Below are positions 29,406-46,759 of a DNA stretch of 64,000 nt, one piece after another. The DNA is taken from the NCBI GenBank assembly GCA_029262455.1, contig JAJCZJ010000020.1, forward strand, positions 325,078 to 389,077, read 5' to 3'. A program made the translations under genes and the position numbers. Below the pieces are notes generated by a model. That model searched no databases, was not told the DNA's origin, and was given only the letters and a program-made list of their open reading frames with translations. The DNA comes from Deltaproteobacteria bacterium (GTDB lineage: Bacteria > Desulfobacterota > Binatia > HRBIN30 > CADEER01). Positions within the stretch are counted from its first letter, which is position 1, and each line of letters opens with the position of its first letter.

Positions 29406-30590
29406 ATGCCGAAAGAAGAGATCGAGGTCGAGGTTCGGGTTCGGCTGCGCGGAGGGCATTCCTACGATCTCACCCTATCATCCAACTCCGCTCTTCTGCG
29501 CGACTTGATCACGACGCTCGGCGGGTCGAGAAACTCGGTCCAGCCCCGACTCTTCCAGCTACCCCTCGACGGCGGCCAAACCTCCGCAACATTCGCCAGC
29601 GATCAGATATCAGCGATCGACACCCGTCCGCCACTCGACTGGAACACCATCACAACTGGTACGGAAGAGCGGTCCGCAAAAAGCCTCGGCGATGGTCCGC
29701 CTCTCGTCCTACGCGGCGCCCGCAACATTACACGCCAGCCATCCTACGAGGCAGCAGAGCGACGAGCGCGGCGGCTGATGGAACCGTTCGTGGCGCATCG
29801 ACAAGCCCGCCGTGCCGCACTGAAGAGCACTTGCGACGAGCTCGGCGGAAACACCTTCGTCGTCTCCCCCTTCAACCAAGGCTTCGTCCCGCTACTGCGC
29901 AACTGGGCCGCATCCTGTGATCGTTCCGGCATCGACTGCCGCGCCAGGACGGTACTGTTTCCGACCGACAACGGCGCCGACACTGCAGCACGCGAGCTCG
30001 GATTCGCAACCCTCTTCGACGGCGTCTCGTTTGACGGTGCCCCGCGCGACGCTATCAAAGTCTACGGGGACGCCCACTTTGCCGATTGTGTCTTCGCCAA
30101 GCTCGGCGCAGCAATCGACATGCTCGCTCTCGGCTACGACATCCTACTCCAGGATATGGATCTCGTCTGGTTCAAAGACCCGCTCCCCGGACTCAAAACT
30201 CGAGCGATGGCCGACGATCTGGACTTACAGTTCATGCGCGACATGAATCCGCGCTTCCAGCCGCTGTACTACAACTCCGGCTTCGTATTTATGCGCAACA
30301 ACGAATTCACCCGCCAAACCTGGAACACCATCTTCGACGCCTTTGCGGCGGTCGTGTTCTACCGCTCCGATCAAACCGTCGTGAACCAGGTCGTCGACTG
30401 CTACAAAGAGCGAGGATTGCGAGCCGCCCGTCTTCCAGATCGCTACGTAGATGGACAACTGCTGATCCGGGCCCAAACAAAACGCCGGCCTCTACCGCCA
30501 GATTCGATCGTGGCTCACGTCAACTGGACCGGAAACCTTGCCGAGAAGATCGCTCGGCTCAAAGCACTCGAACTGTGGTTCATCGACTGA
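29406..30590 (+). CDS. Novel ~80-aa N-terminal domain fused to a nucleotide-diphospho-sugar transferase (Nucleotid_trans/GT77-like) domain
   Basis: Start taken at MPKEEIEVEV (internal Met of ORF 29367..30590; weak RBS, start uncertain). C-terminal domain has LLQDMDLVWFKDP (the DxD...W motif of the Nucleotid_trans family). The N-terminal 80 aa are homologous to the N-terminus of the 36641 protein and to an internal segment of the 41978 protein. Confidence 0.5.
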   Translation: MPKEEIEVEVRVRLRGGHSYDLTLSSNSALLRDLITTLGGSRNSVQPRLFQLPLDGGQTSATFASDQISAIDTRPPLDWNTITTGTEERSAKSLGDGPPLVLRGARNITRQPSYEAAERRARRLMEPFVAHRQARRAALKSTCDELGGNTFVVSPFNQGFVPLLRNWAASCDRSGIDCRARTVLFPTDNGADTAARELGFATLFDGVSFDGAPRDAIKVYGDAHFADCVFAKLGAAIDMLALGYDILLQDMDLVWFKDPLPGLKTRAMADDLDLQFMRDMNPRFQPLYYNSGFVFMRNNEFTRQTWNTIFDAFAAVVFYRSDQTVVNQVVDCYKERGLRAARLPDRYVDGQLLIRAQTKRRPLPPDSIVAHVNWTGNLAEKIARLKALELWFID

Positions 30591-30673
30591 TCGATGCAAA
30601 TCACTTGCCGTGTCACAAGTTTTCCCCTTTTAAGCTTGACAGGAAGTCAGCGAACGTCGAGACTGCCTCCCGG

Positions 30674-31942
30674 ATGCCGACATTTGTTGGCGACACCTTA
30701 CCGGAGGCGCTTCGAGCCTTGGACTGCTCAAAATCCATCGAAACTCGTGTCCTGCCGCGCGCAGTGGCCTTCGGTCGCTTGCTTCTCGCTATCGCGGCGG
30801 CACTTGCCGTGGTGACAGCTCCGCATAGGGCGCCGGCAGCCCAGATCAAGTTCACGGGATTTGCCCAAATCAACGGCGCCCCGAGCGGACCGTTCGCAGC
30901 ATTCACAATGAATGAGGTCGTCGATATGACGATCACGATCGACGAGACTACGGCCGATTCGAATGGCGCCGGCGGCGCCGGATCATACAGCGATCCGACC
31001 TCGACCGCATTGTTCGAGGGACAGACCTCCGTGCAGATGGTCACTTTCACCGGCTTCGGCTTCGAACTCCTCGATTCGACGCGACTCGACCCGGCCAACG
31101 GCCTCGTCTCATCGAGCCCGAGCGCGGCGTACGTCGAGGACTGGGACCTGACCAACCTGTCGCCGATTTCGAACGTCGACGACCTTCCGACCATCATTGC
31201 CGAGTTGCCCAATGTGAACATTGGAACCGTCAGCGCCAACTTTTCGATACAACAACTGCCCGCCGGCCCGACCACGCTCTTCCTCGGGCTCAAGCCAACC
31301 GTCACGGTCACCGACTTTTGCGGCAACGGCATCGTCGAGGCCCCGGAAGCGTGTGACGATCCGGTGTGTTGCAACCCGACCTGCACCGCAATCATAGCGA
31401 ACGGAACTGAATGCCGCGCTTCAGCCGGCGTCTGTGATGTGGCCGAGACCTGCAGCAACGGCGCATGCCCCGTCGACGGCTTCGCCTCGATCGGCACCGT
31501 GTGCAACCCGTCATTGGGCGTCTGTGATCCAGAGGAAGTGTGCAGCGGCTCGAGCGCGGAATGCCCGCCGGACACGCTGACTCAGTTCACCTGTGGCACG
31601 ATCTGCGGCGCCCCGGTAGACGAGTGCGACGTTGCCGACATCTGCGTCTCCGGCAACGTCGATTGCCCACCGATGGGGACAATGTGCACACCGACACCGG
31701 TTCCGACTCCGACGCCCACGCCCGTTCCCGAAAATGGGTCCGGGGACGGGGCTTGCAGCGACGGTCTCGACAACGACAACGACAACCTCATCGACTGCGA
31801 CGACCCTGATTGCCTCGACGTCGAGGCATGCGAAACCGTGCACGCACCGACGCTCTCGCCAGGTGGATTGACGATCACCGTGCTCATCCTCGCCCTCATC
31901 GGCTTGTTGGCGATGGGGCGGGCAGTGCTCCGGAAGAACTGA
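30674..31942 (+). CDS. Secreted Cys-rich repeat protein (CGNG...ECDD myxo-type/disintegrin-like repeats) with PT linker and C-terminal TM plus basic tail (possible sorting signal)
   Basis: Internal ATG of ORF 30086..31942; the true start may be a nearer GTG. Repeats CGNGIVEAPEACDD, CRASAGVCDVAETCSNGACPVDGF and CNPSLGVCDPEEVCSGSSAECPPD, a TPTPVPTPTPTPVP linker, and a tail APTLSPGGLTITVLILALIGLLAMGRAVLRKN. Confidence 0.5.
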   Translation: MPTFVGDTLPEALRALDCSKSIETRVLPRAVAFGRLLLAIAAALAVVTAPHRAPAAQIKFTGFAQINGAPSGPFAAFTMNEVVDMTITIDETTADSNGAGGAGSYSDPTSTALFEGQTSVQMVTFTGFGFELLDSTRLDPANGLVSSSPSAAYVEDWDLTNLSPISNVDDLPTIIAELPNVNIGTVSANFSIQQLPAGPTTLFLGLKPTVTVTDFCGNGIVEAPEACDDPVCCNPTCTAIIANGTECRASAGVCDVAETCSNGACPVDGFASIGTVCNPSLGVCDPEEVCSGSSAECPPDTLTQFTCGTICGAPVDECDVADICVSGNVDCPPMGTMCTPTPVPTPTPTPVPENGSGDGACSDGLDNDNDNLIDCDDPDCLDVEACETVHAPTLSPGGLTITVLILALIGLLAMGRAVLRKN

Positions 31943-32611: not shown

Positions 32612-33976
32612 ATGTCGTCAGGAAACAGCGTAGAAACGCCGCCTACCAACTCTGGAGACTCCCCACGAGCACGGGGTGCGGCGGCTCGGCGGGTACGTCC
32701 GCGGCAGCGGGGCGGGCTCGAGACTTTCGAAGTACACAACGAAATCGTCGTGCTTCCCGGCGAGGGGGACCGCGTTTACGCGCTGAACGAGTCCGGTAAG
32801 GAGATCTTCGGCCTCTGCGACGGTCGCCACACCCTAGAGGCAATGGTCGACCAACTGGCGTCGAGGTACGACGCGCCTGACGTCGCGATCATGGGCGACG
32901 TGTCCGCAGCGATATTCGACCTCCACGGCCTCGGGCTGGTCGATATTCCTCCACCGGCTGACGCAGCTGCATCGATCGAGCCGCAGACCTCGGTCAAGGC
33001 ACGACCCAACGTGCGTTTCGTCTTCGGCATAGAGGACGTGCCCTATTTCCACTGGCAGCTTGCCATCCTCTTCGAGTCGCTCGTCGGCCAATTGCCCGAC
33101 GGTTGGGACGTCACCGTCGTCGTTTGCAACGACGAAGCACCGATTTCCGACGAGCTCATGAAGATCGTTTCCGAGTACGGTGTTCGCATCATGACCGGCA
33201 CCAGTCTCGCCGATCGCCACAGTCTCGACTTCGCCGGCGGCGGTGATCGCTACGTTCCGATGAACCGAGTCGAAGCACTCAGCGTCATTCGGCAAATCGT
33301 CGAACCCGAAGACGTCGTTTGCCTTCTGGACACCGACGTCTTCCTGTACGGCAACCTTCAAGAACAACTCTTCCCGACCGGCAACGCAATGGCCCGCAAC
33401 TGGATCATCTCCGAAGATCGGTACTTCGCGTTCTCGACCAACAACGAACGAGGACTGTCGCTCCCGAAGCTGCTCGAAGCCCTGGGGTGCGAGCAGGAGT
33501 TCAAACCCGGTGGCGTAGCGGTCTTCTTGACGGGAGAGACGATCCAACGCGAGCGCGTCATCCCCGACATTTTCCGTTTCCTTCAGGTTCTGTTCCTGCT
33601 CGGGAAAATCGTCGACGCACCAGCGCACGGCGTTTGGGTCGCCGAAATGGCATGCTTCGCAATGGCCATGTACCCCAACGAAATCGACTACGAGCTTCTC
33701 GACATCCCGCAATTCGCCGTCCAGGAGCAGCATGCTGAAGTCGCCCCCGACGGTTCGTTCTTCCACTACTACACCGACATCAACGACGGCGGGGGATCAA
33801 ATGGTCCGTTTTTCGAATCGCAGTGGCATAAACAGTTATTTCACCAGTCCAACATGCTCCTCGAAGACTTCGACAGCTTCAGAGTGAACGCCAAAGGCCG
33901 CCTCGAGCAGCGCTTCTTCGAAATCGCCGACAAGGCGAGAAAGCGCCTTTACGGCATCGAACGCACGGGCAAGTAG
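32612..33976 (+). CDS. PqqD-like (RRE) domain fused to a DxD-containing putative glycosyltransferase domain
   Basis: Residues ~36-112 (FEVHNEIVVLPGEGDRVYALNESGKEIFGLCDGRHTLEAMVDQLASRYDAPDVAIMGDVSAAIFDLHGLGLVD) match the PqqD/RiPP-recognition-element pattern (LNETA..IWELCDG..T..EI...L...Y......DV..FL..L...GLI). The C-terminal domain has DTD and acidic motifs. Confidence 0.5.
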   Translation: MSSGNSVETPPTNSGDSPRARGAAARRVRPRQRGGLETFEVHNEIVVLPGEGDRVYALNESGKEIFGLCDGRHTLEAMVDQLASRYDAPDVAIMGDVSAAIFDLHGLGLVDIPPPADAAASIEPQTSVKARPNVRFVFGIEDVPYFHWQLAILFESLVGQLPDGWDVTVVVCNDEAPISDELMKIVSEYGVRIMTGTSLADRHSLDFAGGGDRYVPMNRVEALSVIRQIVEPEDVVCLLDTDVFLYGNLQEQLFPTGNAMARNWIISEDRYFAFSTNNERGLSLPKLLEALGCEQEFKPGGVAVFLTGETIQRERVIPDIFRFLQVLFLLGKIVDAPAHGVWVAEMACFAMAMYPNEIDYELLDIPQFAVQEQHAEVAPDGSFFHYYTDINDGGGSNGPFFESQWHKQLFHQSNMLLEDFDSFRVNAKGRLEQRFFEIADKARKRLYGIERTGK

Positions 33977-33980: not shown

Positions 33981-34598
33981 GTGTTGTCAATGTTCGATAC
34001 GCCCGCACACCTCGAGCAGCAGACGCGCGAGCAACAGGCCGCAGCCCGGTACTGCGGGCTCGGCTTCAAAAAGGCCACGCTGCCCTCCGAGGTCTTGCAA
34101 CGGTTGCGCCAACACCTGGAAACGAACAGCCGCCGATTCCGCGCCGAGGAGCCCATCGACTACCTCGTCAACCCGGACCCCGGGAAGATTCCGGCCCTTT
34201 ATTTCGAGGACAAAGAATTCAACGCCACCCTAAGTCGCGAGCTACAAGGATTGCACGAAGAGTGGGCCGGAAGGAGTCTGACCGAGTCCGCCTGCTACGG
34301 CATCCGCGTCTATCAACGCGGCAGCTTTCTCTACAACCACGTCGACCACACCGACACACACATCATCAGCTCTTCGATCTGCGTCGACCACCGCCTCGAC
34401 AAGCCGTGGCCCCTCTACGTCGAGGATATCGACGGCAATCCCCACCAGATCGATCTCGACCCTGGCGACATACTGTTCTACGAGGGAGCCCGCCTGCGAC
34501 ACGGCCGTGCCTATCCACTCGAGGGTGACTACTACGCATCCATTTTCGTCCACTATCGACCCGCAAATCTCTGGTCTTCGCGGCTCGTTGGCACCTAG
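33981..34598 (+). CDS. 2OG-Fe(II) oxygenase superfamily protein (PhyH/P4H-like)
   Basis: YNHVDHTD (HxD) followed by a distal H in LRHGR and a jelly-roll-like spacing. Alternative ATG start at 33990. Confidence 0.55.
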   Translation: MLSMFDTPAHLEQQTREQQAAARYCGLGFKKATLPSEVLQRLRQHLETNSRRFRAEEPIDYLVNPDPGKIPALYFEDKEFNATLSRELQGLHEEWAGRSLTESACYGIRVYQRGSFLYNHVDHTDTHIISSSICVDHRLDKPWPLYVEDIDGNPHQIDLDPGDILFYEGARLRHGRAYPLEGDYYASIFVHYRPANLWSSRLVGT

Positions 34599-34640: not shown

Positions 34641-36644
34641 GTGAGACATCTACTCTATACAAACTACCAGTCCGGTCAGTCGGGTTTGAGCAACGGCATC
34701 ATGTCGATCGAGCTGGGCGTGGTCCTCGCGTTCCTGACGAATCGGTTTCTCCTGCTCGATGGCAACATCTCCCCGCCGGCCAATATCGTGTCGTACGGCG
34801 ATCGAGTCGACAACAGCCAGCCGAGCCGCGTCACCGACCTGATCGACCTACCGGTCGCCTGGAGTGAGCCAGGAAGCGTCGACGTGTCCAAGTTGCCGTT
34901 CCTCGAATTGAGCGACGACCATCTGGGGAGTGCCGCGTTCTATGTCCCCGGCACCGTCGACATCCGATCCGCCGACGCGGAAGCGTTCGCCAACGGCAGG
35001 ACAGTGTGGCTCAACGCTGGCGGCTCGCTCGACGAGATCCCGGTGCTGCGAGTGTCCGAGGATCACAGCAAAGACAATCTTCGATACAATCTCAACTACT
35101 ACTCGTACTTCTTCTACCTCGACGACGAAACGCGTCGCTCCGTCTACCGCATGCTCGAGCGGATGCAACCAAAGCAGGACCTAGGGGAGCTGGCGAAGCG
35201 CGTCGCCGGCGATCTCGGAGCATTCAACGCGGTGCACTTGCGACGCGGTGACTTCAAGGTGACCTATGGAGTCACCACCCTCGACCGTCAACCTTGGGAA
35301 GCAATCGAGGCGCTCGAGCATCACTTCAAACGCGACGACACTCTGGTCTTCGTGACCGACGAGCGCGACGACCCGTTCTTCGACGAGATCAAGAAGGTCT
35401 ATACGCATCACGTATTCATCGATCACCACATCCTCGACGACTACGAGAAGGACTTCGCCGCATTGCAGCACCGCGACAGCATCGCCTTGGCCTATCTTTC
35501 CCAGCTCGTGGCGGCCGAATCCGCCGACTTCATTGGCACCATGACCAGCACGTTCACCGCCATCATCCAGCGCTACCGCGGCAATCGCGGCAAGGCCGAG
35601 AGTTTCAAGTACCTTTGGAACGAGCTCCCGGACGACGGCGATCGTCTCGAACGCGGCCGTCATCCGGTTAGTGAGTGCGTCCCGATGGACCGCGGCATGA
35701 TGGTCGAAGAGTCGTCGGGTCCGTACTCATGGAATCGCTACAACAAGAGGATCGCCGCCAACTGGATGCGCGAATGGCCCGAAAGTTTTCTGACCCAAGA
35801 GAGCCTCGAAACCGGCAAATTGACGACCGGGGCCAGCCCCGTTGCCCGCCCCATCGTTCTGGTTCGTCCCGAAAGGACGAAAGTCGAGGTCGCGTTCGAC
35901 GGCTTGAGCATCATTCTAAACTCGCAAGTGCCTCGCGTTGCGACCAAGCTGAGCGAAGCCTTCGAATCACGCCAAGCTGCGAGTCCAGCGAACGTCATCG
36001 GGGAGTTCGAGGTTGCTGAAGAAGACGGCGACTTCCGTCTTCTGCAACGCGGCCAGGAAATCGCCACCGCAGCAAGCTACGAGGAGTTGGCGCGCACGTT
36101 AAAACTCCGCATGGTGCCGATCTTTGTCGGTGCGCGCCGCCGGCACGTGTGGCTGGAAGCTTTTTCCTTCCGTAGAGCAGGCCATGCGCTGGTTCTCGCC
36201 GGCGACATGGGTCCTCCATCGGACTGGCTGCCGGACGCCATGTGCTCGAACGGCTGGGAGCTGCTGTGGGACGAGATCGTCCCGATCCGCCTGGAAGACT
36301 GTACCGTCACACCGTTCGGCCGCACGACCTGGCCGAAGGGCGCAGCCCTGCGCATCGACCGTACGCCCTGTCGCGTCAGCGGCCTGATCGTCACCAGCCG
36401 ACAAGTCCAGCGCCGCGACACCTTGACCGTCTTGTCCCCAGCCACCGGGGTGGCGGAGTTGATCGGCCGCTGCGTCGACTTCCGCACCGACCGCAAGCGG
36501 GCGGTAGAACGCCTGTGCAAGCTGGTCGAGAAACGAACCGTAGGCAGACTGTCCTTCAGCCGCGCCGAGACCGCTGTCGATCTCCTCACGCGCCCCTTCC
36601 TCGACGCGGAGCGTGAGTCCGCCCACGGTACAAAGTCTGCATGA
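34641..36644 (+). CDS. Fucosyltransferase-superfamily GT-B (O-FucT-like) domain plus ~250-aa C-terminal domain of unknown function
   Basis: N-terminal QSGLSNGIMSIELGVVLAFLTNRFLLL resembles the GGLxNQ block of O-FucT/POFUT-like GTs. HLRRGDF matches the H-x-R-R-G-D motif shared by GT11/GT23/GT65/GT68. The C-terminal region has no recognised motif. Confidence 0.45.
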   Translation: MRHLLYTNYQSGQSGLSNGIMSIELGVVLAFLTNRFLLLDGNISPPANIVSYGDRVDNSQPSRVTDLIDLPVAWSEPGSVDVSKLPFLELSDDHLGSAAFYVPGTVDIRSADAEAFANGRTVWLNAGGSLDEIPVLRVSEDHSKDNLRYNLNYYSYFFYLDDETRRSVYRMLERMQPKQDLGELAKRVAGDLGAFNAVHLRRGDFKVTYGVTTLDRQPWEAIEALEHHFKRDDTLVFVTDERDDPFFDEIKKVYTHHVFIDHHILDDYEKDFAALQHRDSIALAYLSQLVAAESADFIGTMTSTFTAIIQRYRGNRGKAESFKYLWNELPDDGDRLERGRHPVSECVPMDRGMMVEESSGPYSWNRYNKRIAANWMREWPESFLTQESLETGKLTTGASPVARPIVLVRPERTKVEVAFDGLSIILNSQVPRVATKLSEAFESRQAASPANVIGEFEVAEEDGDFRLLQRGQEIATAASYEELARTLKLRMVPIFVGARRRHVWLEAFSFRRAGHALVLAGDMGPPSDWLPDAMCSNGWELLWDEIVPIRLEDCTVTPFGRTTWPKGAALRIDRTPCRVSGLIVTSRQVQRRDTLTVLSPATGVAELIGRCVDFRTDRKRAVERLCKLVEKRTVGRLSFSRAETAVDLLTRPFLDAERESAHGTKSA

Positions 36645-37630
36645 CAGACCAAGCAACCGCACCGCGCCAGATCGACATCCGCATCTCCACCATCGGCGGG
36701 CACGAGTATCGGTTGAATCTCCGCGAAGACGCCGTCCATTTGCGCGACCTCTTTACTCGATTCGTCAACCGACCGGCGACTGGGGCTGTCCGAGCTCCTG
36801 AATTCATCCAACTGCCCCTCGACGGAGGCAACGCTTCCTGCACGATCGCCGTCGATCAGATTGTGTCGATCGTCACCACGCCACCAGTCGTCATCGAAGT
36901 GCAACAACCCGCCGTCGAGCCAAACGTAATTCCAGATGTGCCGGCAGTGGTCGCGCCACCCCAGATCCGGCGCGCACACTACACGGTGATCGACGACTTT
37001 CTCACCGTCGATGAGCACCGAGACATGCTGGCGTTGGCATTGAGCGAGAAGGACAGCTTCGAACCCGGTACGGTGCAGGGTGAACCGAGTCCACACCGAC
37101 GAAACAGCGTCATCATGAACTTCGCAGACTCGGCGCACGGAACACTGCTGACAAGTCGTCTGCTCGTTTGGTTTCCATTGATCGCAAAGGCGCTGAAGGA
37201 ACCACTGTTTCCGCTCAAGACGGTCGAGTCGCAACTGACCGCCGCCAACGACGGAGACTACTATAAGCCTCACCTCGATACCGACGGGAAGACCCCCGAT
37301 TTCCGGGTCATCGCGTGCGTCTACTATTTCTTCCGCGAGCCAAAAGGGTTCACGGGCGGCGACCTACGCCTCTATGATTCCATCGAAACAGGTGGCGAAA
37401 TCTGTCAGGCGGATTCCTTCCAAGACATTCGGCCGGCAAGCAATCGCTTGGTCGCATTCACCTGCGAGACCTTCCACGAGCTGCTCGCGACTCGCTGCCC
37501 GTCCAAGGATATCGAAGACAGTCGTTTTGCGGTGACCGCGTGGTTTCACCGCAGCGGCGCACCGGACCCCGACGCCAAGTTCGGTTGGGGACATTATCGT
37601 TGCGGCGAAGTTCCGGAGGCACTGCGGTGA
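36641..37630 (+). CDS. Novel ~80-aa N-terminal domain fused to a prolyl-4-hydroxylase-like 2OG-Fe(II) oxygenase
   Basis: C-terminal domain has YYKPHLDTD (HxD), GGDLRLY, NRLVAF..ETFHEL (second His) and RFAVTAWF (2OG-binding Arg), which is the P4H pattern. The N-terminus IDIRISTIGGHEYRLNL...LRDL...QLPLDGGNASCTIAVDQIVSIVTTPP is paralogous to the N-terminus of the 29406 protein. ATGA overlap with the upstream gene. Confidence 0.6.
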   Translation: MTDQATAPRQIDIRISTIGGHEYRLNLREDAVHLRDLFTRFVNRPATGAVRAPEFIQLPLDGGNASCTIAVDQIVSIVTTPPVVIEVQQPAVEPNVIPDVPAVVAPPQIRRAHYTVIDDFLTVDEHRDMLALALSEKDSFEPGTVQGEPSPHRRNSVIMNFADSAHGTLLTSRLLVWFPLIAKALKEPLFPLKTVESQLTAANDGDYYKPHLDTDGKTPDFRVIACVYYFFREPKGFTGGDLRLYDSIETGGEICQADSFQDIRPASNRLVAFTCETFHELLATRCPSKDIEDSRFAVTAWFHRSGAPDPDAKFGWGHYRCGEVPEALR

Positions 37631-37802: not shown

Positions 37803-38930
37803 ATGATCTTCACGGTTTTCGTCGCACCGGTCGAACCAACGCAACAGTGGCGTGCCGATCTCCTCGAATACTCATGGCGACGCATCAAGCAGAGCGGCGA
37901 ACTGATCCGGCTGGCGCCAACCGCCCCCGGACGCGCACCAGGTAGCAGAGGGAGAGTCGGGAGAACCGTCAAAACGTTCGACTGGAACCCCCACCCGTAC
38001 ACCCAGGACGTGTACGCCGGCTATCAGACAACCGCCGGCGTACTCGAGTGGTTGTTCAACGAGCCGGCCGAAGGAACAGTCCTTTTGCTGGATTCGAGCT
38101 GCATCCTACGCCACCCGGTTACAGCAGAGGTCGAACCAGGCCACGTGCGCGGGTCGTCGTGGCCGGAGATCCCACTTGGCACGGACGGCCCATTCGGCCT
38201 GCATGATGATCTGAAGTTTCTCGAATCCTATTGCGTCAACCGCAAGCTCCCCCTCGCTCCCGTGCGGATGCCGATTTTGATCCACACGGCGGACCTGCGA
38301 AAAATCGCGGCGCGCTGGCTCGAGCTTACGGCGTTGATTCGATCCCATGCCGTAGGCGTTCACGGAAAATACCTTCATGCAGATCGCGTCGCCTACACCG
38401 TCGCCGCCGCCGAATACCGCATCCTCCACACCCTTGACGACCTCGGCACTACGACGTCGGATACCGGCAAAGACGTTCCGATCGTCGACTACAGCACACC
38501 GATCAAGTCCAAACAGGGAGAGATCGTCTGGGACCGAAAGGTCTATCGACCATGGGAGGCAGTCTACACCGAAAATGCGCGCGCAGGCGCAGGCAGAGAC
38601 GTACTCGGGATCCTGAACGAGATGGTGACGCGCCGCGAATCGGGAGCCGAGCTTGCGGCAACACGTCCACAGCGGTGCTACGGGGTGCGGGAAGCACGAA
38701 TTCTCGACGACATTCATCTCGAAGTACCTGGGTGTGCCGACTTGATGTCGCTGAATCAATCCGCGGCTGCCATCTGGGAGCTGTGCAACGGCGAGAACAC
38801 ACTCGCCGAGATCGTCAGCGAGCTCGAGAGACAATTCGACGCGTCACGCGAAACCCTCATGACATCCGTCGAATCGACGGCGAGGGATTTGGAAAGCTCA
38901 GGTGCCATCGAGCTGGAGGAGCTGTTCTGA
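37803..38930 (+). CDS. Unassigned N-terminal (possibly glycosyltransferase) domain with C-terminal PqqD-like (RRE) domain
   Basis: C-terminal 83 aa ILDDIHLEVPGCADLMSLNQSAAAIWELCNGENTLAEIVSELERQFDASRETLMTSVESTARDLESSGAIELEE match the PqqD pattern. N-terminal ~290 aa begin MIFTVFVAPVEPTQQWRADLLEYSWRRIKQSG. Confidence 0.5.
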   Translation: MIFTVFVAPVEPTQQWRADLLEYSWRRIKQSGELIRLAPTAPGRAPGSRGRVGRTVKTFDWNPHPYTQDVYAGYQTTAGVLEWLFNEPAEGTVLLLDSSCILRHPVTAEVEPGHVRGSSWPEIPLGTDGPFGLHDDLKFLESYCVNRKLPLAPVRMPILIHTADLRKIAARWLELTALIRSHAVGVHGKYLHADRVAYTVAAAEYRILHTLDDLGTTTSDTGKDVPIVDYSTPIKSKQGEIVWDRKVYRPWEAVYTENARAGAGRDVLGILNEMVTRRESGAELAATRPQRCYGVREARILDDIHLEVPGCADLMSLNQSAAAIWELCNGENTLAEIVSELERQFDASRETLMTSVESTARDLESSGAIELEELF

Positions 38931-40156
38931 TGGCATCCAAAGCAAAACCAAGCGCCAAAAAGTCCGTGCCGACCACAAAAACAAAGCACGCAGCAAAACG
39001 TGCCAAAGCCTCGGCCAAGAAAACAGCCAAAGCGCCGCCCGGAAAAGCCACGACAGCACGGGCGAAGAAGACCACCAAGACTCCGGCCTCCAAGAGCCCC
39101 AAAACCCGGACCCAAAGGACCCGGGCCCAAAAGCCCCGGGCCCGCAAAGCCGCGCTCAAAGTATCGCAAACGGTGTCGCCCAAAGGATCGCAAACGACTT
39201 CGAAGACGGAGCGAACGACCCCATCGCCTCGCGCAAAGTCGCGGCAGGCCACAAAACAACCCCAGATCTTCGTGTCGATCGCCTCCTACCGCGACCAGTT
39301 TCTTCACTTCACCATCGAGTCGGTGCTCAAACAGGCGACGTACCCAGAACGGTTGACCTTCGGCCTCTGCTGGCAAGCCGACGACACCGAGCAACTCGAT
39401 CAATACCTGCACGATCCGCGTTTCCGCATTCGCAAGTACCCGTACTACGCGAGCCTCGGCTACGGTTGGGCAAGAGCCGAGATCCAAAAACTATACGCCG
39501 GCGAAGAGTACCATCTACTGATCGATTCTCACACGTATCTCGCCAAGGGGTGGGACGAGAATCTGATCGCGCAACTCGAGAGCAAGCCGGGCGAGAAGCC
39601 GCTACTGACGACCAGCTCACCCCCTTTCACCTTCGACAATGACGGCAACGTCGTAATCCCGTGGCAAGGGACCGAACACGACGGCGTGCCGCTGATGAAG
39701 TGCGCACGAATCCAACCGGCAGGGTGGGTCGACATCCAGATGTCCAATGAGCGCAAGTCCACCAAACATCAAACCACCGGATTGGTGTGCTGTAACTTTG
39801 TCTTCACGCACGGGGCTTGGATCCGCGAAGTGCCCGAGGATCCGGCGATGATCAACGCCGGCCACGAGTCAGCCCTTTCGGTTCGTACCTTCACCCACGG
39901 ATACGACATCTACCTGCCCGACGAAATTCAAATCTGGCACCTCGACTACAACAACTACCCGAACGGTGAGCGCAACAAGGTATGGGAAGCAAAGTCCGAC
40001 AGTTGGCAGTCTGAGGGCACCGAGATCATGCTGCGGCGGCTGCAAGCGCTGTTCTACAACCGCGGCGACCGCGCCTCGCTCGGCCGCTACGGACTCGGTC
40101 GATCCCGCACCGTAGCCGACTGGGCGGAGATCACCGGACTCGACCTCAGTGACTGA
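38930..40156 (+). CDS. GT60-like (Glyco_transf_GlcNAc / Skp1-Hyp and mucin-Thr GlcNAc-transferase family) enzyme with ~110-aa Lys/Ala/Thr-rich histone-H1-like N-terminal tail
   Basis: ATG overlaps the upstream stop (TGATG). Tail MASKAKPSAKKSVPTTKTKHAAKRAKASAKKTAKAPPGK... Catalytic region starts IFVSIASYRDQFLHFTIESVLKQATYPERLTFGLCWQADD, which I recognise as the N-terminal signature of the GT60 family from memory (needs HMM confirmation). Paralogous to 46893..47900. Confidence 0.45.
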   Translation: MASKAKPSAKKSVPTTKTKHAAKRAKASAKKTAKAPPGKATTARAKKTTKTPASKSPKTRTQRTRAQKPRARKAALKVSQTVSPKGSQTTSKTERTTPSPRAKSRQATKQPQIFVSIASYRDQFLHFTIESVLKQATYPERLTFGLCWQADDTEQLDQYLHDPRFRIRKYPYYASLGYGWARAEIQKLYAGEEYHLLIDSHTYLAKGWDENLIAQLESKPGEKPLLTTSSPPFTFDNDGNVVIPWQGTEHDGVPLMKCARIQPAGWVDIQMSNERKSTKHQTTGLVCCNFVFTHGAWIREVPEDPAMINAGHESALSVRTFTHGYDIYLPDEIQIWHLDYNNYPNGERNKVWEAKSDSWQSEGTEIMLRRLQALFYNRGDRASLGRYGLGRSRTVADWAEITGLDLSD

Positions 40157-41942
40157 CGTCGACTCCGCACTACTGCCAATTCCCCAACCCGAGTGGCGTG
40201 CTTCTTTATCCGGCGACGGCGCGGCAGTTGATGTCCTGATTTTAAGCAAGGACCGCGCCTGCCAACTCGACGGACTGCTGCGCACGATGCGCGCGTTCCT
40301 GACCATCCCACACCGGAAATACGTACTGTACAAGACGTCTAATTTGGCGTTCGAGCGCGGCTACGACATGCTCCGCCGGTGGAATCCCGAGGTCGAGTTC
40401 ATCGACGAGGCGCAAACGTTTCGACAATGCTACCTCGACCTCGTGGCAAGGATCGCCGCCGGGCCTGGTCGCTACTGGATGCCGGTGATGGACGACATGA
40501 TCTTCACTCGCACGTTCACCGCACAGCCACTCATCGACCTCCTCGACACAGACGAGGACGTGCTGGCGATCTCTCTGCGCCTCGGCGAGAACATTACCTA
40601 TTGCTACACCCGAAACGCTCCAACCACACCTCCGGACTTCAGCAACGGACACCGTTGGGAATGGAGAACAGCCAGCCCAGGCTACTGGAACTATCCAATG
40701 TCCGTCGACGCCAACATCTACCGCACGGCGGAAATGGCCGAATACATCCCGACCCTCCAATTCGGCAAGGCTGAAGTCATCGAGGCACGCATGGCCGGGG
40801 TGCCCTTGAACCGCCCCCATATGCTGTGTGAACCGACCCCCAGCGTACTCAATCTCGCGATCAACCGCGTTCAACACACCTTCAAGAATCGGCACGGCAC
40901 AATCACGCCAGAAGCCCTGAACGGCGCTTTCCTCGCGGGTTTCGCGATGGATGTGCGCCCGTTGCTGGGTCGAACCTTCAACGCCTGTCACGTCGAGGTC
41001 GAGCTGTCCTTGGTCCCCGATGCGCGCGAGCGCCCCGGCGCAACGCCCCTCTCTTCGACCGGCTGGAAACCACAGCGAAACGGCGCCGTCGTCGTGACCG
41101 AGAGCCATGCTGTCGTGACGCTCAAGAGGAACGGAACGAAGCTCAAACTCAATCAGAGCGCCGAAGAGATCTGGAAACTGTGCGACGGAACACGAACGCC
41201 CGAGGACATCCAAAACGAGCTCGCGCAACATTTTGACGCAACCCCGCGCCAGCTTCACAGCGGCGTACGAAGCGCCCTGGCGAATTTCATCAATCACGGC
41301 CTTCTCCGTCAGGAACGCCCGGAAGGCGCATACCGCCGCATCGACCTGCGCCAGATTCCCTGCTTCGTGATCAATTGCGAAGCCGATGCTGAGAAGGACA
41401 CGTTGATGAAGCGTCAGCTCGCTGAGCTCGGGATACCGTACGAACGTGTACCCGGGATCGCCGCAAGCCCGGATTGGGTCGGCGTCGCGCTGTCGCACCT
41501 CAAAGTGCTTCGCCTGACCCGCTCGACGACACCCTTCCTGGTGCTCGAGGACGATTGCTTGTTCAACGACCGCTTCCAACCAGTGTGGCAAGTACCGGTC
41601 GAGGCCGACGCCCTGTATCTCGGCGTTTCCGAGTTCGGCCTCGAGACCCCCGGTCACTTCAGCTGGGGCCGCCGGCGCAAGAACCAATGGAGACCCTACG
41701 ACCGGTCCTTCCTCCGCATTTTCAACATGCTCGCACGCCATGCGGTCGTGTACCTTTCCAACGACTACTGCGAGCAAGTCATCCAATCGCAAATCGAAGC
41801 ACTGACGAATCGAAGTTTGCCGTACCCTGGGGACATCGGCTGCGCGATGCTGCAAGCATCGCACGTCGTCCTGACCCCGAACGAACCGATCTGCCGGCAA
41901 ACCGGTCGTGACTCGACCGTGCGTCCGTTGCCGGAGCTCTGA
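40149..41942 (+). CDS. Three-domain enzyme: GT-A (GT2-like) domain - PqqD-like (RRE) domain - GT25 family glycosyltransferase domain
   Basis: GTG start overlapping the upstream stop. N-terminal VDVLILSKDRACQLDGLLRTM and a DDM motif (GT-A). Residues ~312-388 VVTLKRNGTKLKLNQSAEEIWKLCDGTRTPEDIQNELAQHFDATPRQLHSGVRSALANFINHGLL (PqqD-like). C-terminal CFVINCEADAEKDTLMKRQLAELGIPYERVPGI matches the GT25 N-terminal motif (LPS GT25 / collagen Hyl-galactosyltransferase family). Confidence 0.5.
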   Translation: MTDVDSALLPIPQPEWRASLSGDGAAVDVLILSKDRACQLDGLLRTMRAFLTIPHRKYVLYKTSNLAFERGYDMLRRWNPEVEFIDEAQTFRQCYLDLVARIAAGPGRYWMPVMDDMIFTRTFTAQPLIDLLDTDEDVLAISLRLGENITYCYTRNAPTTPPDFSNGHRWEWRTASPGYWNYPMSVDANIYRTAEMAEYIPTLQFGKAEVIEARMAGVPLNRPHMLCEPTPSVLNLAINRVQHTFKNRHGTITPEALNGAFLAGFAMDVRPLLGRTFNACHVEVELSLVPDARERPGATPLSSTGWKPQRNGAVVVTESHAVVTLKRNGTKLKLNQSAEEIWKLCDGTRTPEDIQNELAQHFDATPRQLHSGVRSALANFINHGLLRQERPEGAYRRIDLRQIPCFVINCEADAEKDTLMKRQLAELGIPYERVPGIAASPDWVGVALSHLKVLRLTRSTTPFLVLEDDCLFNDRFQPVWQVPVEADALYLGVSEFGLETPGHFSWGRRRKNQWRPYDRSFLRIFNMLARHAVVYLSNDYCEQVIQSQIEALTNRSLPYPGDIGCAMLQASHVVLTPNEPICRQTGRDSTVRPLPEL

Positions 41943-41977: not shown

Positions 41978-44900
41978 GTGAAAAAGGGCACAATCCACGA
42001 TCTCTTCTCCCGCACCGCTTGCGTCGTGTCCGACAGGCACCGATTCATCTATTTGACGGCGCAAAACGCCACGTCTTCCCTGAAGGCCGAGCTGTCGAAC
42101 GAGCACTGCGGCGGCGTTGTCCTCGCCCGCGCACAGGTGGCTGATAAACTCTGGAACCAATACTTTACGTTCGCCTTCCTGCGCGACCCGCTGACGCGCT
42201 TTCTCTCCGCCTATCAGGAAGTGTCTCTGCACATGGAGCGTGACAAACTCGAACCGCGCCCTTTCGGCCGGATGCCCGACGGCCTCGATCGCTTTCAGGC
42301 ATTTCTCGCGGACGTCGAGCAGAACGGTCCGTGGAACGAGCACATTGCACTCCAGCTAGCCTTCGTCGAGCGCCGAAGAATCGACTTTTGGGGGCTCGTC
42401 GAAACGCTGCAAGACGACTTCCAACAAATCTACACCCGGCTGGGATTGGGGACCTGTCCCGTTCTGCCAAAACGCCGCTCTCGCAGCGGCCGTGAGGAAA
42501 AGGACGGCATCTCGCGCTTCGCCTTCCATCCGGAGGACCTCGATGCGACGACAATTGAGCGCATCTACGACCTCTACCGTGAGGACGTCTTGCTGATTCG
42601 AGCGGTTCGCCCCGACGCACCTGAAATGCAGCCGCACTCAACCCGTGCCGCACCGCCCCCCGGAATGGTGCAGGTGGCGATCGCCCTGGCCAACGGCGGC
42701 GAATACTCCCTCGAACTTCCGCCCGGCCAACCAGAGCTGGGCGCTCTGCAAGCTGTGGTATCACCACAACAATCCGATGGACGTTTTCTCGGCCCGCAAG
42801 TTCTGCAGGTTCCACTGCGTGGTGGCAATTCCGCGCTGACGTTTTCCACGCAGCACCTCGTTCGTCTCGAGCTACGCCCCCCCGACGCCCGAGAACTGCG
42901 CCGAATCGAGGCGCCGGCCACCGGCACGGGCAACTCCGGAGTGAATCTAATAAACGTCGGGAACAAGCGGCCGCCAACCGAGGACCCATCGAGCAATATC
43001 GACGAGGCGCATCTCGGTGGCTACATTCGTGCGGCCAATACACCGATTCTCCACAGCGCCGCAGGCCCACACGGGGACCGGGGAACCTGGAATCCGCTGC
43101 TGTGGCGTTGGGCAATCGAAGATCTCGACGTGCGATCAGTGATCGATATCGGATGCGGCGAGGGACACGCCGCCGGATTTTTCTCCGACGGCGGGTGTGA
43201 AGTGCTCGCGCTCGATGGCAGCCTTCAAGCGCGCTATTCCAGCGTTGTTCCAGATCGCCACGTCGTACACGACTTCGTCGAGGGACCTTTCGTCCCAGAG
43301 AAAAGCTTCGACATGGCCTGGACCTGCGAGTTCGTCGAACACGTCGAGGCGCGTTTTCTCCACAATTTCCTGGCTACGATCGCATCGAGCCGCAAGTACG
43401 TGATGATGACGTTCGCCAGCCCGACACAAACAGGCTGGCATCACGTCAATTGCCAAGAACAGGGTTACTGGGTCGATCAGTTGGGACGCCTCGGGTTTCG
43501 CCTGGACGACGATCTAACCGAGAGAGGCCGAGCCTTGGCTCACTCTCATTTTCGCGAACGTGGCCTGGTCTTCGTCCGGCACCATCGAAAAGGCGAGTCA
43601 TCGAAGTCCACAGAACCGTCGCTGCGCGCGACTGCCGAGAGTCACTGTCTCGACCCGCTGCCGGTCCAATCCATGCAGGTCGCACAGCGCGAGAGCGATG
43701 CCTTCTACCTGTTTGTCGACATCTTCGTGCATCCGACCGCACCGAGAATCGTGGCGATCTCACCACCCTATGGCGAAGACTGGAATCCTAACGTTGTCGG
43801 CATCGACTACGATGCCGTCGACCTTGTATTCGGTGACATACGCGTCCGCGGCCGCTGCCTGCGGCACCGTCTCGACTCCTGGGAGCCTTGCATGCTTCTC
43901 GAGTTCGAGGACGAAGACCTAACAGAGCGCATTCGGGCCAACGACGAGATCAACGTCACGATCGAGGCCGGCTCGCATTCGTCGTCCTTCGTCCTGACGA
44001 CCCGCCCAGCGCCAGCCTACGATGTCGCAATGAGCCTCGTCGTACGCAACGAAAACCGCTGGATCCGCACGTTTCTCGACTACTACCTCGACTGCGTCAA
44101 AGCCGACCACGTCTTCATCTACGACAACGGAACGTCGGAACAAGACCAGCTGCTTTCCATTCTTCACCCGTACCGAGAGCGCGGGCAAGTGACGTACATC
44201 CCGTGGGATTTTCGCTGGCGCAACCGCATCGACCGCAAGATGATCGGCCAACCGACACAGGAGGCTCACTCCCTTGCAAGATTCGCAAACACCGGGTGGA
44301 TCGGCTTTCTCGACATCGACGAGTTCCTGCGCTTGCCGCACAGCACCCTGCCACAATTTCTCGCTCGCTTCGCGTCCGCGGAGGTCGACGGACTCTCGTT
44401 CGGTATCCGGTGGTTTTCTTACGAGGGCCCGCTTGCACTCGATGAGATTACGAGTGTGCCACTGCAATTCCTCCACTCGCGCCGCAATGAGCTCGGCCGA
44501 AAACGGCAGAAGTTCTTCGTCAAAGGCGGCGGCTCGAAGTTTCTTCGCTTGCATTGGCTCGAAGACGGAGGTCGCGAACTGCCCATCGACGACACCGAGA
44601 TCTACTTTCACCACTACGATCAACGTCCCGGCCGTTTCGAAGAAGGAAAGCAAATCGGAGGAGCGCGCGACGAATACATGCTGCGCTTCGCCGACCAGCT
44701 CTCGCGCCCCGAGCGGCACAGAGCCCCTCTAACCGAGAGAGGATGGATCACCCACATCAACTCTTCGATCGAACGCGCCGAACGCGACACCTCCAAACTC
44801 ACCCCGGAAGTCCTCGCCGTCGACGGCATGTGCGGGCGCTACACCCGTCACTTCTACAACAACCTCTGCAGCTTCGGAGGATGCCGCTACCTCGAGATCG

Positions 44901-45385
44901 GCAGCTATCACGGGGCCAGCACCTGCGCGGCAATCTTCGGCAACGACGTATCCGCCGTGTGCATCGACAATTGGACACAGTTTCACGGCAAGCGAAGCCG
45001 CTTCGAGGATGCCCTACGACGCTTCCGAGGAGATCGCTCGGTCCGAGTCATCGAGCAAAACTGCTTCGAAGTAGACGCCTCAAGCCTCGGCCCATTCGAC
45101 ATCTATCTCTACGATGGCGACCACAGCCAGCAGAACCAGTACCGAGCCTTGCAGCACTTCGTTCAGACGCTGGCCAAGCTCGCCGTAGTCGTCATCGACG
45201 ACTGGAATCGTCGGCATATCCGTCGGGGGACACAGGACGCGATTCGGGACCTCGAACTCGATGTAATCTTCGACCGAGAGATCCTACTGCCAACCGACCA
45301 GACGGCGGATGAAAACCGTGACGCTGGAGCGCGAACTTGGTGGAACGGACTCTACATCATGCTCGTTCGCAGTAGAACGCAGTAG
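41978..45385 (+). CDS. 1135-aa five-domain enzyme: sulfotransferase (Sulfotransfer_2-like) - novel ~80-aa domain - class I SAM methyltransferase - GT-A glycosyltransferase (DIDEFL) - TylF/CmcI-like O-methyltransferase
   Basis: GTG start. Five domains are visible:
- (1) 5'-PSB-like RFIYLTAQNATSSLKAEL and 3'-PB FLRDPLTRFLSAY, carbohydrate sulfotransferase motifs.
- (2) MVQVAIALANGGEYSLELP...LQVPLRGGNSALTFSTQHLVRLELRPP, homologous to the N-termini of the 29406 and 36641 proteins.
- (3) RSVIDIGCGEGHAAGFFSDGGCEVLALD, methyltransferase motif I.
- (4) HVFIYDNGTSEQ...GWIGFLDIDEFL, GT-A DxD.
- (5) FDIYLYDGDHS, Methyltransf_24 (TylF/MycF-like) motif. Confidence 0.55.
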   Translation: MKKGTIHDLFSRTACVVSDRHRFIYLTAQNATSSLKAELSNEHCGGVVLARAQVADKLWNQYFTFAFLRDPLTRFLSAYQEVSLHMERDKLEPRPFGRMPDGLDRFQAFLADVEQNGPWNEHIALQLAFVERRRIDFWGLVETLQDDFQQIYTRLGLGTCPVLPKRRSRSGREEKDGISRFAFHPEDLDATTIERIYDLYREDVLLIRAVRPDAPEMQPHSTRAAPPPGMVQVAIALANGGEYSLELPPGQPELGALQAVVSPQQSDGRFLGPQVLQVPLRGGNSALTFSTQHLVRLELRPPDARELRRIEAPATGTGNSGVNLINVGNKRPPTEDPSSNIDEAHLGGYIRAANTPILHSAAGPHGDRGTWNPLLWRWAIEDLDVRSVIDIGCGEGHAAGFFSDGGCEVLALDGSLQARYSSVVPDRHVVHDFVEGPFVPEKSFDMAWTCEFVEHVEARFLHNFLATIASSRKYVMMTFASPTQTGWHHVNCQEQGYWVDQLGRLGFRLDDDLTERGRALAHSHFRERGLVFVRHHRKGESSKSTEPSLRATAESHCLDPLPVQSMQVAQRESDAFYLFVDIFVHPTAPRIVAISPPYGEDWNPNVVGIDYDAVDLVFGDIRVRGRCLRHRLDSWEPCMLLEFEDEDLTERIRANDEINVTIEAGSHSSSFVLTTRPAPAYDVAMSLVVRNENRWIRTFLDYYLDCVKADHVFIYDNGTSEQDQLLSILHPYRERGQVTYIPWDFRWRNRIDRKMIGQPTQEAHSLARFANTGWIGFLDIDEFLRLPHSTLPQFLARFASAEVDGLSFGIRWFSYEGPLALDEITSVPLQFLHSRRNELGRKRQKFFVKGGGSKFLRLHWLEDGGRELPIDDTEIYFHHYDQRPGRFEEGKQIGGARDEYMLRFADQLSRPERHRAPLTERGWITHINSSIERAERDTSKLTPEVLAVDGMCGRYTRHFYNNLCSFGGCRYLEIGSYHGASTCAAIFGNDVSAVCIDNWTQFHGKRSRFEDALRRFRGDRSVRVIEQNCFEVDASSLGPFDIYLYDGDHSQQNQYRALQHFVQTLAKLAVVVIDDWNRRHIRRGTQDAIRDLELDVIFDREILLPTDQTADENRDAGARTWWNGLYIMLVRSRTQ

Positions 45386-46048: not shown

Positions 46049-46744
46049 TCATCCCACCCCGCAGACCTCCCGACCCGTGGCTTCACGATAGTAGGACACA
46101 TCCTCGGCGCAAATGCGCAAAGCCAGTTCTCGCGTCTCCCCATCATAGAAAAGCTCCGGAACCGGCATCCCGTGCCGGCGAAGCCAGCCCGGGGAACGAT
46201 CTGTCGCGCGCTCTCGAATCGTCACGTCCTGCGGCGAAGGATTCTCGTGCAGGACCGGCGCGGAAACCGAAACTCTCTCGTTTAAGCTCGCCAGCCCCCG
46301 CGAGAGATCTTCCACCGCAACGACTTCGTCGAAGTCTATCTGATGCGTGTTTCGGACCTGCGGCACCAAATGGTGCTGGGGTTCGATCCCGCGGGTCTGA
46401 ACATGCTGCAAGGTGTAGAGGAACTTGCGAAAGCTCTTGTCCCGCAGCGAGAGCTTCCGGTCATCGTCGGCAAAGCACCACAACGTTTCATCGCGCACGA
46501 CCCACAAGGTGTAGAACCCGACGAGTCGGCGAAGCGGATCGCGCACAAAGAAGACCTTCCAATAGTCACGACAGCGGTCGATGTCGCCGTGCCAAATCAG
46601 GAAAGCGTCAAGGTCTTCGACCGGTTGCTTCGTCTTCTCCTCAATCGCTGCCTTGCACCACGATCGGATGCTGTTCGAACCACACTTGGGACTATAGACG
46701 GCAAGTACTTCGAGTGGATCCGCGGCTAGGAAGAAGTGGGCCAT
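46049..46744 (-). CDS. Carbohydrate sulfotransferase-like protein (Sulfotransfer_2/3 family); possible N-terminal extension through the heptad repeat to a GTG at 46900
   Basis: From MAHFFLAADPLEVLAVYSPKCGSNSIRSW (5'-PSB PKCGS) and FFVRDPLRRLVGFY (3'-PB). The ORF-track version starts at a GTG at 46898-46900, 5 nt upstream of the preceding gene's stop, which is a coupling-type overlap. That start would add (T-S-H-E-S-P-V)n repeats to the N-terminus. Confidence 0.5.
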   Translation of the reverse strand: MAHFFLAADPLEVLAVYSPKCGSNSIRSWCKAAIEEKTKQPVEDLDAFLIWHGDIDRCRDYWKVFFVRDPLRRLVGFYTLWVVRDETLWCFADDDRKLSLRDKSFRKFLYTLQHVQTRGIEPQHHLVPQVRNTHQIDFDEVVAVEDLSRGLASLNERVSVSAPVLHENPSPQDVTIRERATDRSPGWLRRHGMPVPELFYDGETRELALRICAEDVSYYREATGREVCGVG

Positions 46745-46759
46745 GGGGATTCTATGTGT

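Follow-up and report, generated by a model that had tools for sequence, protein, structure and literature searches.

To our knowledge, O-glycosylation of hydroxyproline is regarded as a eukaryotic trait and HPAT (GT95) as a plant and algal family of glycosyltransferases; nothing in the literature that we searched contradicted the eukaryote-only view. The plant and algal enzymes (HPAT1-3; PF23452) transfer L-arabinofuranose from UDP-L-Araf to peptidyl hydroxyproline and are characterized by a type II membrane anchor and a secretory location. Here we analyzed a window of 64,000 nucleotides from a Deltaproteobacteria bacterium of the Binatia (contig JAJCZJ010000020.1, positions 325,078 to 389,077), in which one gene, hereafter the target, encodes an HPAT-like GT-A glycosyltransferase with a C-terminal PqqD-type recognition element (RRE) of the sort found in enzymes that tailor peptides synthesized on ribosomes and modified after translation (RiPPs). 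The target is a member of the PqqD/RRE family and a homologue, rather than a functionally defined member, of the HPAT family. It belongs to a large bacterial branch of the HPAT family, which we place in an operon of RiPP style and apparent leader guidance that also encodes a protein prolyl hydroxylase and the repeat proteins taken as substrates. On balance, we think it probable that the target is a cytoplasmic, leader-guided peptide O-glycosyltransferase, in which the RRE would bind the leader of a precursor and the HPAT-like domain would work on its xPT core, with 4-hydroxyproline as the likeliest acceptor.

Several described systems resemble parts of this cluster. The catalytic domain of the target is homologous to that of the plant and algal HPATs, with W, HP, TxDxY, H..DL, W, R, Y, and H positions in common, and its gene is partnered with genes for a prolyl 4-hydroxylase (P4H) and for PF03407 transferases, a family to which we take the plant GT77 enzymes RRA and XEG113 to belong. 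In contrast to the plant enzymes, the target is bacterial, cytoplasmic, anchorless, and RRE-fused; it falls below the Pfam cut-off for HPAT, its DxD (in the eukaryote-type enzymes DPD) is degenerate, and no UDP-arabinose genes were seen with it. The Skp1 pathway of Dictyostelium and Toxoplasma (PhyA, Gnt1/GT60) is likewise cytoplasmic and combines a PHD-type P4H and PF11397/GT60 transferases with stepwise extension of a glycan. The cluster differs from it in its substrate, a leader-bearing PT-rich repeat protein, in the proposed recognition by RREs, and in having an HPAT-like enzyme, of which the Skp1 pathway has none. As among RRE-dependent RiPP enzymes, a PqqD-type RRE is fused here to a tailoring enzyme encoded beside a leader-bearing precursor. 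Glycocins, which are S-/O-glycosylated bacteriocins, are also ribosomal peptides that receive their sugar from a soluble GT-A enzyme in the cytoplasm, but their transferases (SunS/ThuS type) are RRE-less GT2 enzymes. These attach one sugar to a Cys, Ser, or Thr residue in a helical, folded peptide, and neither hydroxylation nor repeats are involved.

In the literature on carbohydrate-active enzymes, HPAT is classed as GT95 and RRA/XEG113 as GT77 (PMC5371791). Fusions of an RRE with a glycosyltransferase have been listed bioinformatically (RRE-Finder; PMC7470986, PMC12710340), the only Pfam family named being the GT2-type PF00535. Those fusions are GT2-type and uncharacterised, whereas the cluster described here has an HPAT-like glycosyltransferase, three RRE enzymes, and, in place of a short peptide, a repeat protein of 100 to 300 aa as the core. 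Our literature search found no description of a bacterial HPAT homologue, of an RRE-HPAT fusion, or of this operon. What would be new in this leader-guided tailoring are the enzyme family and the chemistry, along with the unusual, protein-sized repeat substrate.

The PqqD domain and the leader-bearing precursors

An earlier note on this DNA had described the stretch 38679-38927 on the forward strand as a second PqqD-like domain, C-terminal on a protein with an unassigned N-terminal domain. The translation of this stretch is exactly the peptide quoted there (YGVREAR-ILDDIHLEVPGCADLMSLNQSAAAIWELCNGENTLAEIVSELERQFDASRETLMTSVESTARDLESSGAIELEE-LF) and forms the last 83 residues of the target (amino acids [aa] 293 to 375); the strand opposite is interrupted by stop codons. 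The profile search bore the assignment out: Pfam PqqD (PF05402) was matched with an E value of 1.9e-13 (51 bits, cut-off 23.4), and because all of the 42 aligned homologues matched it too, the match is not a chance one. In an AlphaFold2 model of the target made with these 42 homologues in the alignment (pLDDT 93.8, pTM 0.88), DSSP assigned strands at aa 296-300, 303-307, and 315-317, followed by helices at aa 319-327, 334-345, and 349-365. Three strands and then three helices are, in the model, the winged-helix order of RREs, and the whole fold covers about aa 287 to 373. Sequence searches of the PDB returned nothing significant for the whole protein and, for the C-terminal 83 aa, the solved PqqD 5sxy at an E value of only 1.1, so the assignment rests on the Pfam profile.

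The count of two in the earlier note did not hold, as the cluster has three such domains, the third in the 597-aa protein. Its remark that the domain order is reversed relative to another protein of the cluster was correct: in that protein, the swapped-order paralogue (Table 1), PqqD comes first and the HPAT-like domain follows. By sequence, two HPAT-like paralogues of the cluster carry an RRE, one of them after and the other before the HPAT-like domain, which explains the remark. The three RREs are about 33% identical and have the pattern LN[QE]S..EI[WF].LCDG..T in common, a motif consistent with a single shared leader.

The NCBIfam models gave only subthreshold PqqD equivalog matches with the target, the top one being PQQ_PqqD (TIGR03859 equivalog) at 36.6 bits with a cut-off of 46. 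This top match is what speaks for a PqqD chaperone of pyrroloquinoline quinone (PQQ) cofactor biosynthesis. Because the equivalog scores are subthreshold, we regard the domain as one of the PqqD family, yet the protein as not one of the PQQ pathway; the domain is, moreover, fused to a glycosyltransferase, and no PqqA, B, C, or E homologue was found among the scanned open reading frames (ORFs) between 16.7 and 51.3 kb. We rejected this candidate, and its probability is practically nil.

The presumed substrates are two PT-repeat precursors. Precursor 1, directly upstream of the conserved gene cassette, begins with a conserved helix (KTRKQLIEELEQLRGQV), continues through a linker to the motif SRRTALKVAWTAPVILAIP (SRR..W.APVIL), and ends in a 103-aa tail that forms the core, with 28% Pro, 25% Thr, 20 PT dipeptides, and SPT as the commonest triplet. 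Precursor 2, at the far end of the cluster, pairs the same leader with a shorter core of xPT repeats; its C terminus is formed by a hydrophobic helix and then an acidic tail, a type of tail that recurs in four other loci (L005, L008, L012, and L019). Elsewhere the same precursor design lies upstream of the cassette, with cores of 40 to 270 aa and hypervariable repeats that include AFPT, MxVPT, SPT, EPT, and NPT. A database search for precursors found 66 proteins, all unnamed and none with a Pfam domain; Pfam and NCBIfam scans of the precursors matched no family, the sole match being the Pfam 'PT disordered repeat' in one homologue. Judged from sequence, the cluster has the RiPP pattern of a conserved leader and a variable core beside RRE-bearing tailoring enzymes. 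A scan for promoters and terminators around the precursor gene gave nothing above chance. In some gammaproteobacterial precursors (L003/L021, L009, and L022), a conserved IPVELT(E/D)FEV(N/D/S)G tail replaces the hydrophobic-helix tail and may be a different sorting or anchoring signal.

We then compared the distributions of leader and RRE. A hidden Markov model of the leader found a syntenic precursor in 38 of 59 sources. A leader-type precursor was present in 37 of the 48 RRE-bearing loci and in none of the 10 RRE-less loci (Fisher test, P value = 6.8e-6), and most of the RRE-bearing loci without a precursor were contigs ending upstream. This phylogenetic coupling is the strongest available evidence for an RRE that serves the leader. 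It suggests that the RRE of the target binds the conserved N-terminal leader of both precursors and that this docking would tether the GT-A domain to its substrate, leading to action along the repeated xPT core.

Two other explanations concern the precursors as well. In one, the PqqD domain does not bind the precursor and instead assembles the tailoring enzymes into a complex, which would suit its presence on three enzymes and that of a separate domain of about 80 aa on three others; we consider this quite improbable, since the RRE correlates strongly with leader-type precursors and PqqD-family domains are peptide-binding in characterised pathways (PMC11626156). In the other, the product of the cluster is a polysaccharide or a glycan linked to lipid, and the neighboring ORFs with PT repeats have no connection with it. 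The wider window does encode YfhO-like and MBOAT membrane proteins and many glycosyltransferases, but the precursor is syntenic and leader-conserved across the sources given above, and polysaccharide synthesis has no place for a protein prolyl hydroxylase or for three RREs, which makes this second explanation very improbable.

The separate domain is unnamed (IDIRISTIGGHEYRLNL...FIQLPLDGGNASCTIAVDQIVSI) and common to three tailoring enzymes without PqqD, namely, the hydroxylase, the PF03407 transferase, and the 1135-aa multidomain protein. The copies in the hydroxylase and the PF03407 protein are 42% identical (E value = 7e-14), and the identity to that of the multidomain protein is 27% (E value = 4e-7). 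In the hydroxylase model, its order of strand-strand-helix-strand-strand-strand is beta-grasp-like, and it may be a second kind of substrate- or partner-docking module.

The leader also has features of an export signal. The twin-arginine translocation (Tat) system exports proteins already folded and matured in the cytoplasm, so Tat would suit a protein glycosylated there. In the leader alignment, R43, R44, W51, and P54 are invariant; the alignment has an invariant [ST]RR, x-[AV]-L, a moderately hydrophobic stretch, W.APVILS.P, basic residues, and TA[HQ]A-like sites, and the hydrophobicity of the precursor peaks at aa 45 to 61. The leader thus resembles a twin-arginine signal, the consensus of which is SRRxFLK (PMC3712460). 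Because it combines S/T-R-R-x-A-L with a hydrophobic stretch and an AxA-like site, we propose that the finished glycoprotein may be exported by Tat and the leader removed. With its AxA-like site lying past the hydrophobic stretch, the leader could be a substrate of signal peptidase, and no protease was found in the core cassette.

Bufferins, RiPPs whose precursors have a general export signal and combine Sec with multinuclear nonheme iron-dependent oxidase (MNIO) chemistry (PMC11626156), resemble this system in their long precursor, cytoplasmic modification, and N-terminal export signal instead of a dedicated transporter. They differ in that the signal in the cluster's leader looks like a twin-arginine one and follows a conserved helix. 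Dedicated chaperones keep Tat signals bound up to the end of maturation (the redox enzyme maturation proteins TorD/DmsD; PMC3712460, PMC3316669), and a cytoplasmic protein that binds a twin-arginine leader until maturation ends would be a possible analogy; the folds are unrelated, and in this cluster the binding would fall to an RRE that is part of the maturation enzyme itself.

The glycosyltransferase domain and its HPAT relatives

The N-terminal domain of the target, left unassigned in the earlier note, is now placed as a GT-A glycosyltransferase homologous to HPAT (PF23452, GT95). The note had asked whether the first 290 aa or so have a glycosyltransferase fold, and they do: Foldseek with the target model found, in the PDB, retaining GT-A enzymes of family GT6 (2y7a, 4cjb, 4ayj, and 1g8o; E values of 4e-7 to 8e-6 and target-normalised TM-scores of 0.5 to 0.62). 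These neighbors by fold comprise human GTA/GTB, bovine alpha-1,3-galactosyltransferase, and the metal-independent bacterial BoGT6a (4ayj). The PDB sequence search with the target turned up no HPAT sequence among solved structures.

The relationship to HPAT was evaluated with profiles. Three tested homologues, 48 to 50% identical to the target, scored 25 to 29 bits on the Pfam HPAT model, above its cut-off of 23.9, and 26 of the 42 family members matched it at an E value of ≤0.01 (best E value, 2.1e-9). With a profile built from the N-terminal domain, an exhaustive HMMER search yielded 517 cluster representatives at an E value of ≤1e-3; among its distant matches were four proteins at 110 bits on Pfam HPAT, including a ShKT-domain protein of the green alga Raphidocelis. 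When the bacterial profile was aligned by hhalign with a eukaryote-type HPAT profile, built from proteins scoring 29 to 115 bits on Pfam HPAT, the match had a probability of 99.93% (E value = 2.9e-36, 243 columns). Positions common to the target and the eukaryote-type HPATs include W16, R36, H64-P65, D69, Y74, G113, H161, D164, W172, R180, Y198, and H209, of which the putative active-site residues H64, H161, D164, W172, R180, Y198, and H209 are invariant or nearly so in the family. The eukaryote-type members have 40 to 100 extra N-terminal residues relative to the target, which begins directly with strand 1 (MIFTVFV) and has, in sequence and model, no hydrophobic N terminus or membrane anchor. 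The absence of an anchor marks its predicted architecture as cytoplasmic.

Several observations weigh against a leader-guided hydroxyproline glycosyltransferase. The target itself scored 12.5 bits on the Pfam HPAT model (E value = 0.094), below the cut-off. The DPD that is invariant in the eukaryote-type set (D160 and D162) reads D97-S98-S99 in the target, and over 120 homologues the DxD is degenerate: E or D comes first in 102 and G, A, R, or N in 18, and the third position (99) is acidic (D/E) in only 39. Catalysis may therefore be metal-independent, different, or lost. The Pfam HPAT model also matches long algal ShK-domain proteins, and because the plant Ser-galactosyltransferase SGT1 is related to HPAT, Ser/Thr acceptors are possible. 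The swapped-order paralogue, whose C-terminal 334 aa match the eukaryote-type HPAT profile (probability of 95.4%, E value = 2e-8), retains a DxD (DTD) and WxAEM and could be the real hydroxyproline glycosyltransferase. No UDP-arabinose pathway genes are present, the only sugar-nucleotide enzyme found being a GDP-mannose 3,5-epimerase homologue. Finally, the NCBIfam Tat-signal models did not match the precursors.

The degenerate DxD also raises the question of whether the GT-A domain is catalytically degenerate and the target a scaffold or chaperone that binds the leader and either hands the precursor to other enzymes or delays export, in the manner of the inactive partner proteins of other RiPP pathways or of Tat proofreading chaperones. 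The unconserved position (DSS in the target; G, A, R, or N first in 18 of 120) and the existence of dedicated chaperones that bind Tat signal peptides (PMC3712460, PMC3316669) would fit such a role. However, many other putative active-site residues in common with the eukaryotic HPATs are invariant or nearly so, and the structural relatives include BoGT6a, which is metal-independent and active without a DxD (4ayj). We judge the scaffold role improbable.

The conserved cassette and its partner enzymes

Next, we looked into how widely the target and its neighbors occur together. A word-indexed search found 207 relatives; the best 120 of these were nearly all about 360 to 410 aa long, covered almost the full query, and had a C-terminal PqqD in every case (120/120), and where they were named, the names were 'hypothetical' or 'PqqD family.' At 58% identity, the nearest relatives from named sources were those of an unclassified bacterial metagenome-assembled genome (MAG) and of a MAG of Candidatus Binatia. 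Scanning species-representative genomes gave 54 loci with target relatives, in Candidatus Binatia, Candidatus Nitrotoga, Gammaproteobacteria, Myxococcota, many Alphaproteobacteria, Acidobacteriota, and Thermodesulfobacteriota. Gene tables and a tblastn synteny table showed a conserved order: small ORF, PqqD-N protein (about 440 aa), a further protein (about 210 aa), O-FucT-like protein (about 670 aa), 2-oxoglutarate (2OG) oxygenase, target, and PF11397 (GT60-type) protein. This cassette is kept in about 40 loci of several phyla and is often followed by a large multidomain protein with a further PqqD and sulfotransferase, methyltransferase, and GT92/GT2 domains. In the window, the target is the fifth cassette gene after precursor 1, and its stop codon overlaps the ATG of the GT60 gene by one base (TGATG), which suggests translational coupling.

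The 10 RRE-less loci (L047 to L052, L054 to L056, and L058), in which a relative of the target's GT domain occurs without PqqD, belong to Gammaproteobacteria, Parasphingorhabdus, and Silvibacterium. Most of those with enough flank adjoin homologues of the 205-aa and/or GT60 protein, and they are without a prolyl hydroxylase, a PqqD-N paralogue, or a leader-type precursor; they look like a separate sister system that is independent of the RRE. In seven loci (L018, L025, L032, L036, L037, L043, and L056), discrete PqqD-like ORFs as small as 90 to 129 aa accompany the fused ones.

The 2OG/Fe(II) oxygenase encoded immediately upstream of the target is of the PHD-type P4H kind. Its best solved relative by sequence was the Skp1 prolyl hydroxylase of Dictyostelium (6t8m, E value = 4e-5), and the closest folds to its model (pLDDT 89.9) were PHD-type protein prolyl 4-hydroxylases, namely, PPHD of Pseudomonas putida (4j25/4iw3; E value of about 2e-12, TM-score of 0.75), 6t8m, and human PHD2. 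Its homologues are annotated as 'SM-20-related' or 'Tpa1-like proline 4-hydroxylase.' This P4H-like neighbor supports hydroxyproline as the acceptor of the target: the enzyme would make the 4-hydroxyproline that is the most likely acceptor of the target, with Ser or Thr as a possible one.

The acceptor might instead be the Thr or Ser of the xPT/SPT repeats, with the target still leader-guided and the paralogue, whose DxD is intact, as the hydroxyproline-directed enzyme. Thr is about as abundant as Pro in the core, where SPT predominates among the triplets; the paralogue is nearer the eukaryotic HPATs at DxD and WxAEM; and the Pfam HPAT family also takes in long algal ShK-domain proteins. Against this, the RRE-bearing form almost always co-occurs with the prolyl hydroxylase, which the RRE-less relatives lack, and the hydroxylase and target genes are neighbors in most loci. 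We regard a Thr/Ser acceptor as rather unlikely and retain 4-hydroxyproline.

Further sugars would be added to the tethered precursor by the swapped-order paralogue, the O-FucT-like protein, the GT60 proteins, and the PF03407 transferase, and the sulfotransferases and methyltransferases of the cluster would decorate it with sulfate and methyl groups. The close homologue of GDP-mannose 3,5-epimerase, which has similar counterparts in roughly half of the related loci, makes GDP-L-galactose a candidate donor sugar, plausibly used by the O-FucT-like enzyme. For the 205-aa and 667-aa proteins of the cassette, Pfam scans with relaxed thresholds brought nothing further, and the N-terminal 325 aa of the third PqqD protein showed no similarity to the HPAT-like profile. 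Residues 500 to 570 of the O-FucT-like protein weakly match the NCBIfam model 'HprK-related kinase A' (TIGR04352, E value = 1.3e-6, far below the cut-off).

A broader reading is more tentative, and we hold it as possible rather than probable: bacteria of several phyla would use an RRE-guided cytoplasmic pathway to make mucin- or extensin-like glycoproteins, O-glycosylated on hydroxyproline and Thr, sulfated, and exported by Tat, as a prokaryotic counterpart, and possibly the evolutionary source, of the machineries for plant hydroxyproline-rich glycoproteins and protist Skp1. Its enzyme set would be the PHD-type P4H, the two HPAT-like glycosyltransferases, the GT60 proteins, the PF03407/GT77-like transferase, the O-FucT-like protein, and the supply of GDP-L-galactose, with the three RREs and the shared beta-grasp-like docking domain ordering the enzymes on a single leader. 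If the mechanism proposed for the target holds, the RiPP field would gain a new posttranslational chemistry and a new class of RRE-fused enzymes, and a soluble, leader-addressable glycosyltransferase/hydroxylase toolkit would be available for engineering mucin- or extensin-like glycopeptides. Furthermore, HPAT enzymology would have a prokaryotic model, and the origin of eukaryotic hydroxyproline glycosylation would become directly testable. Two carriers, Elongatibacter sediminis CH-27 and Tepidamorphus sp. 3E244, are in culture, so that experiments can be done.

Other features of the window

Table 1. Features of the cluster and its surroundings, in positions of the window
Feature	Position	Strand	Basis
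Target gene, HPAT-like GT-A glycosyltransferase with C-terminal PqqD/RRE, 375 aa	37803-38930	+	ORF, profiles, model
GT-A domain of target, HPAT homologue, aa 1-290	37803-38672	+	Profiles, fold, alignment
PqqD (PF05402) match of target, aa 314-369	38742-38909	+	Pfam profile
Precursor 1, 168 aa	31963-32469	+	
Precursor 2, 159 aa	45413-45892	-	
Swapped-order paralogue, PqqD (aa 44-110) then HPAT-like domain	32612-33976	+	Profiles
Core cassette member, conserved 205-aa protein without assigned function	33981-34598	+	Synteny
O-FucT-like protein, 667 aa, weak GDP-fucose protein O-fucosyltransferase-like region	34641-36644	+	Profiles
2OG/Fe(II) oxygenase, PHD-type P4H kind, with N-terminal 80-aa beta-grasp-like domain	36641-37630	+	Sequence, model
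PF11397 'Glycosyltransferase (GlcNAc)' protein, GT60-type	38930-40156	+	Pfam
Third PqqD protein, 597 aa, PqqD at aa 330-386, weak GT25-like C terminus	40149-41942	+	Profiles
Multidomain tailoring protein, 1135 aa: sulfotransferase, 80-aa domain, methyltransferase, GT92/GT2-like, methyltransferase	41978-45385	+	Profiles
PF03407 nucleotide-diphospho-sugar transferase with N-terminal 80-aa domain (true start probably near 29406)	29367-30590	+	
80-aa domain, 2OG oxygenase aa 10-83	36668-36889		
80-aa domain, PF03407 ORF aa 20-90	29424-29636		
80-aa domain, 1135-aa ORF aa 222-309	42641-42904		
Accessory sulfotransferase	46049-46900	-	
Accessory second PF11397 glycosyltransferase	46893-47900	-	
GDP-mannose 3,5-epimerase homologue	48116-49114	-	E ~1e-93 to PDB 8sg0 and 2c59
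Large ORF with Cys-rich repeats	30086-31942	+	
Three tandem YfhO-like genes (PF09586)	16733-24116	+	
MBOAT acyltransferase	27498-28907	-	
876-aa ORF without Pfam match	24941-27571	-	

Directly upstream of precursor 1, a large ORF combines Cys-rich repeats with a PTPVPTPTPTP linker and, at its C terminus, a hydrophobic anchor. It weakly matches disintegrin and 'acidic double-disulfide repeat' models and may encode either a further substrate of the PT-linker kind or a surface protein without relation to the cluster. The region upstream of the cluster holds the MBOAT acyltransferase and 876-aa ORFs on the reverse strand and three tandem paralogous genes for YfhO-like membrane proteins of about 710 to 725 aa each.

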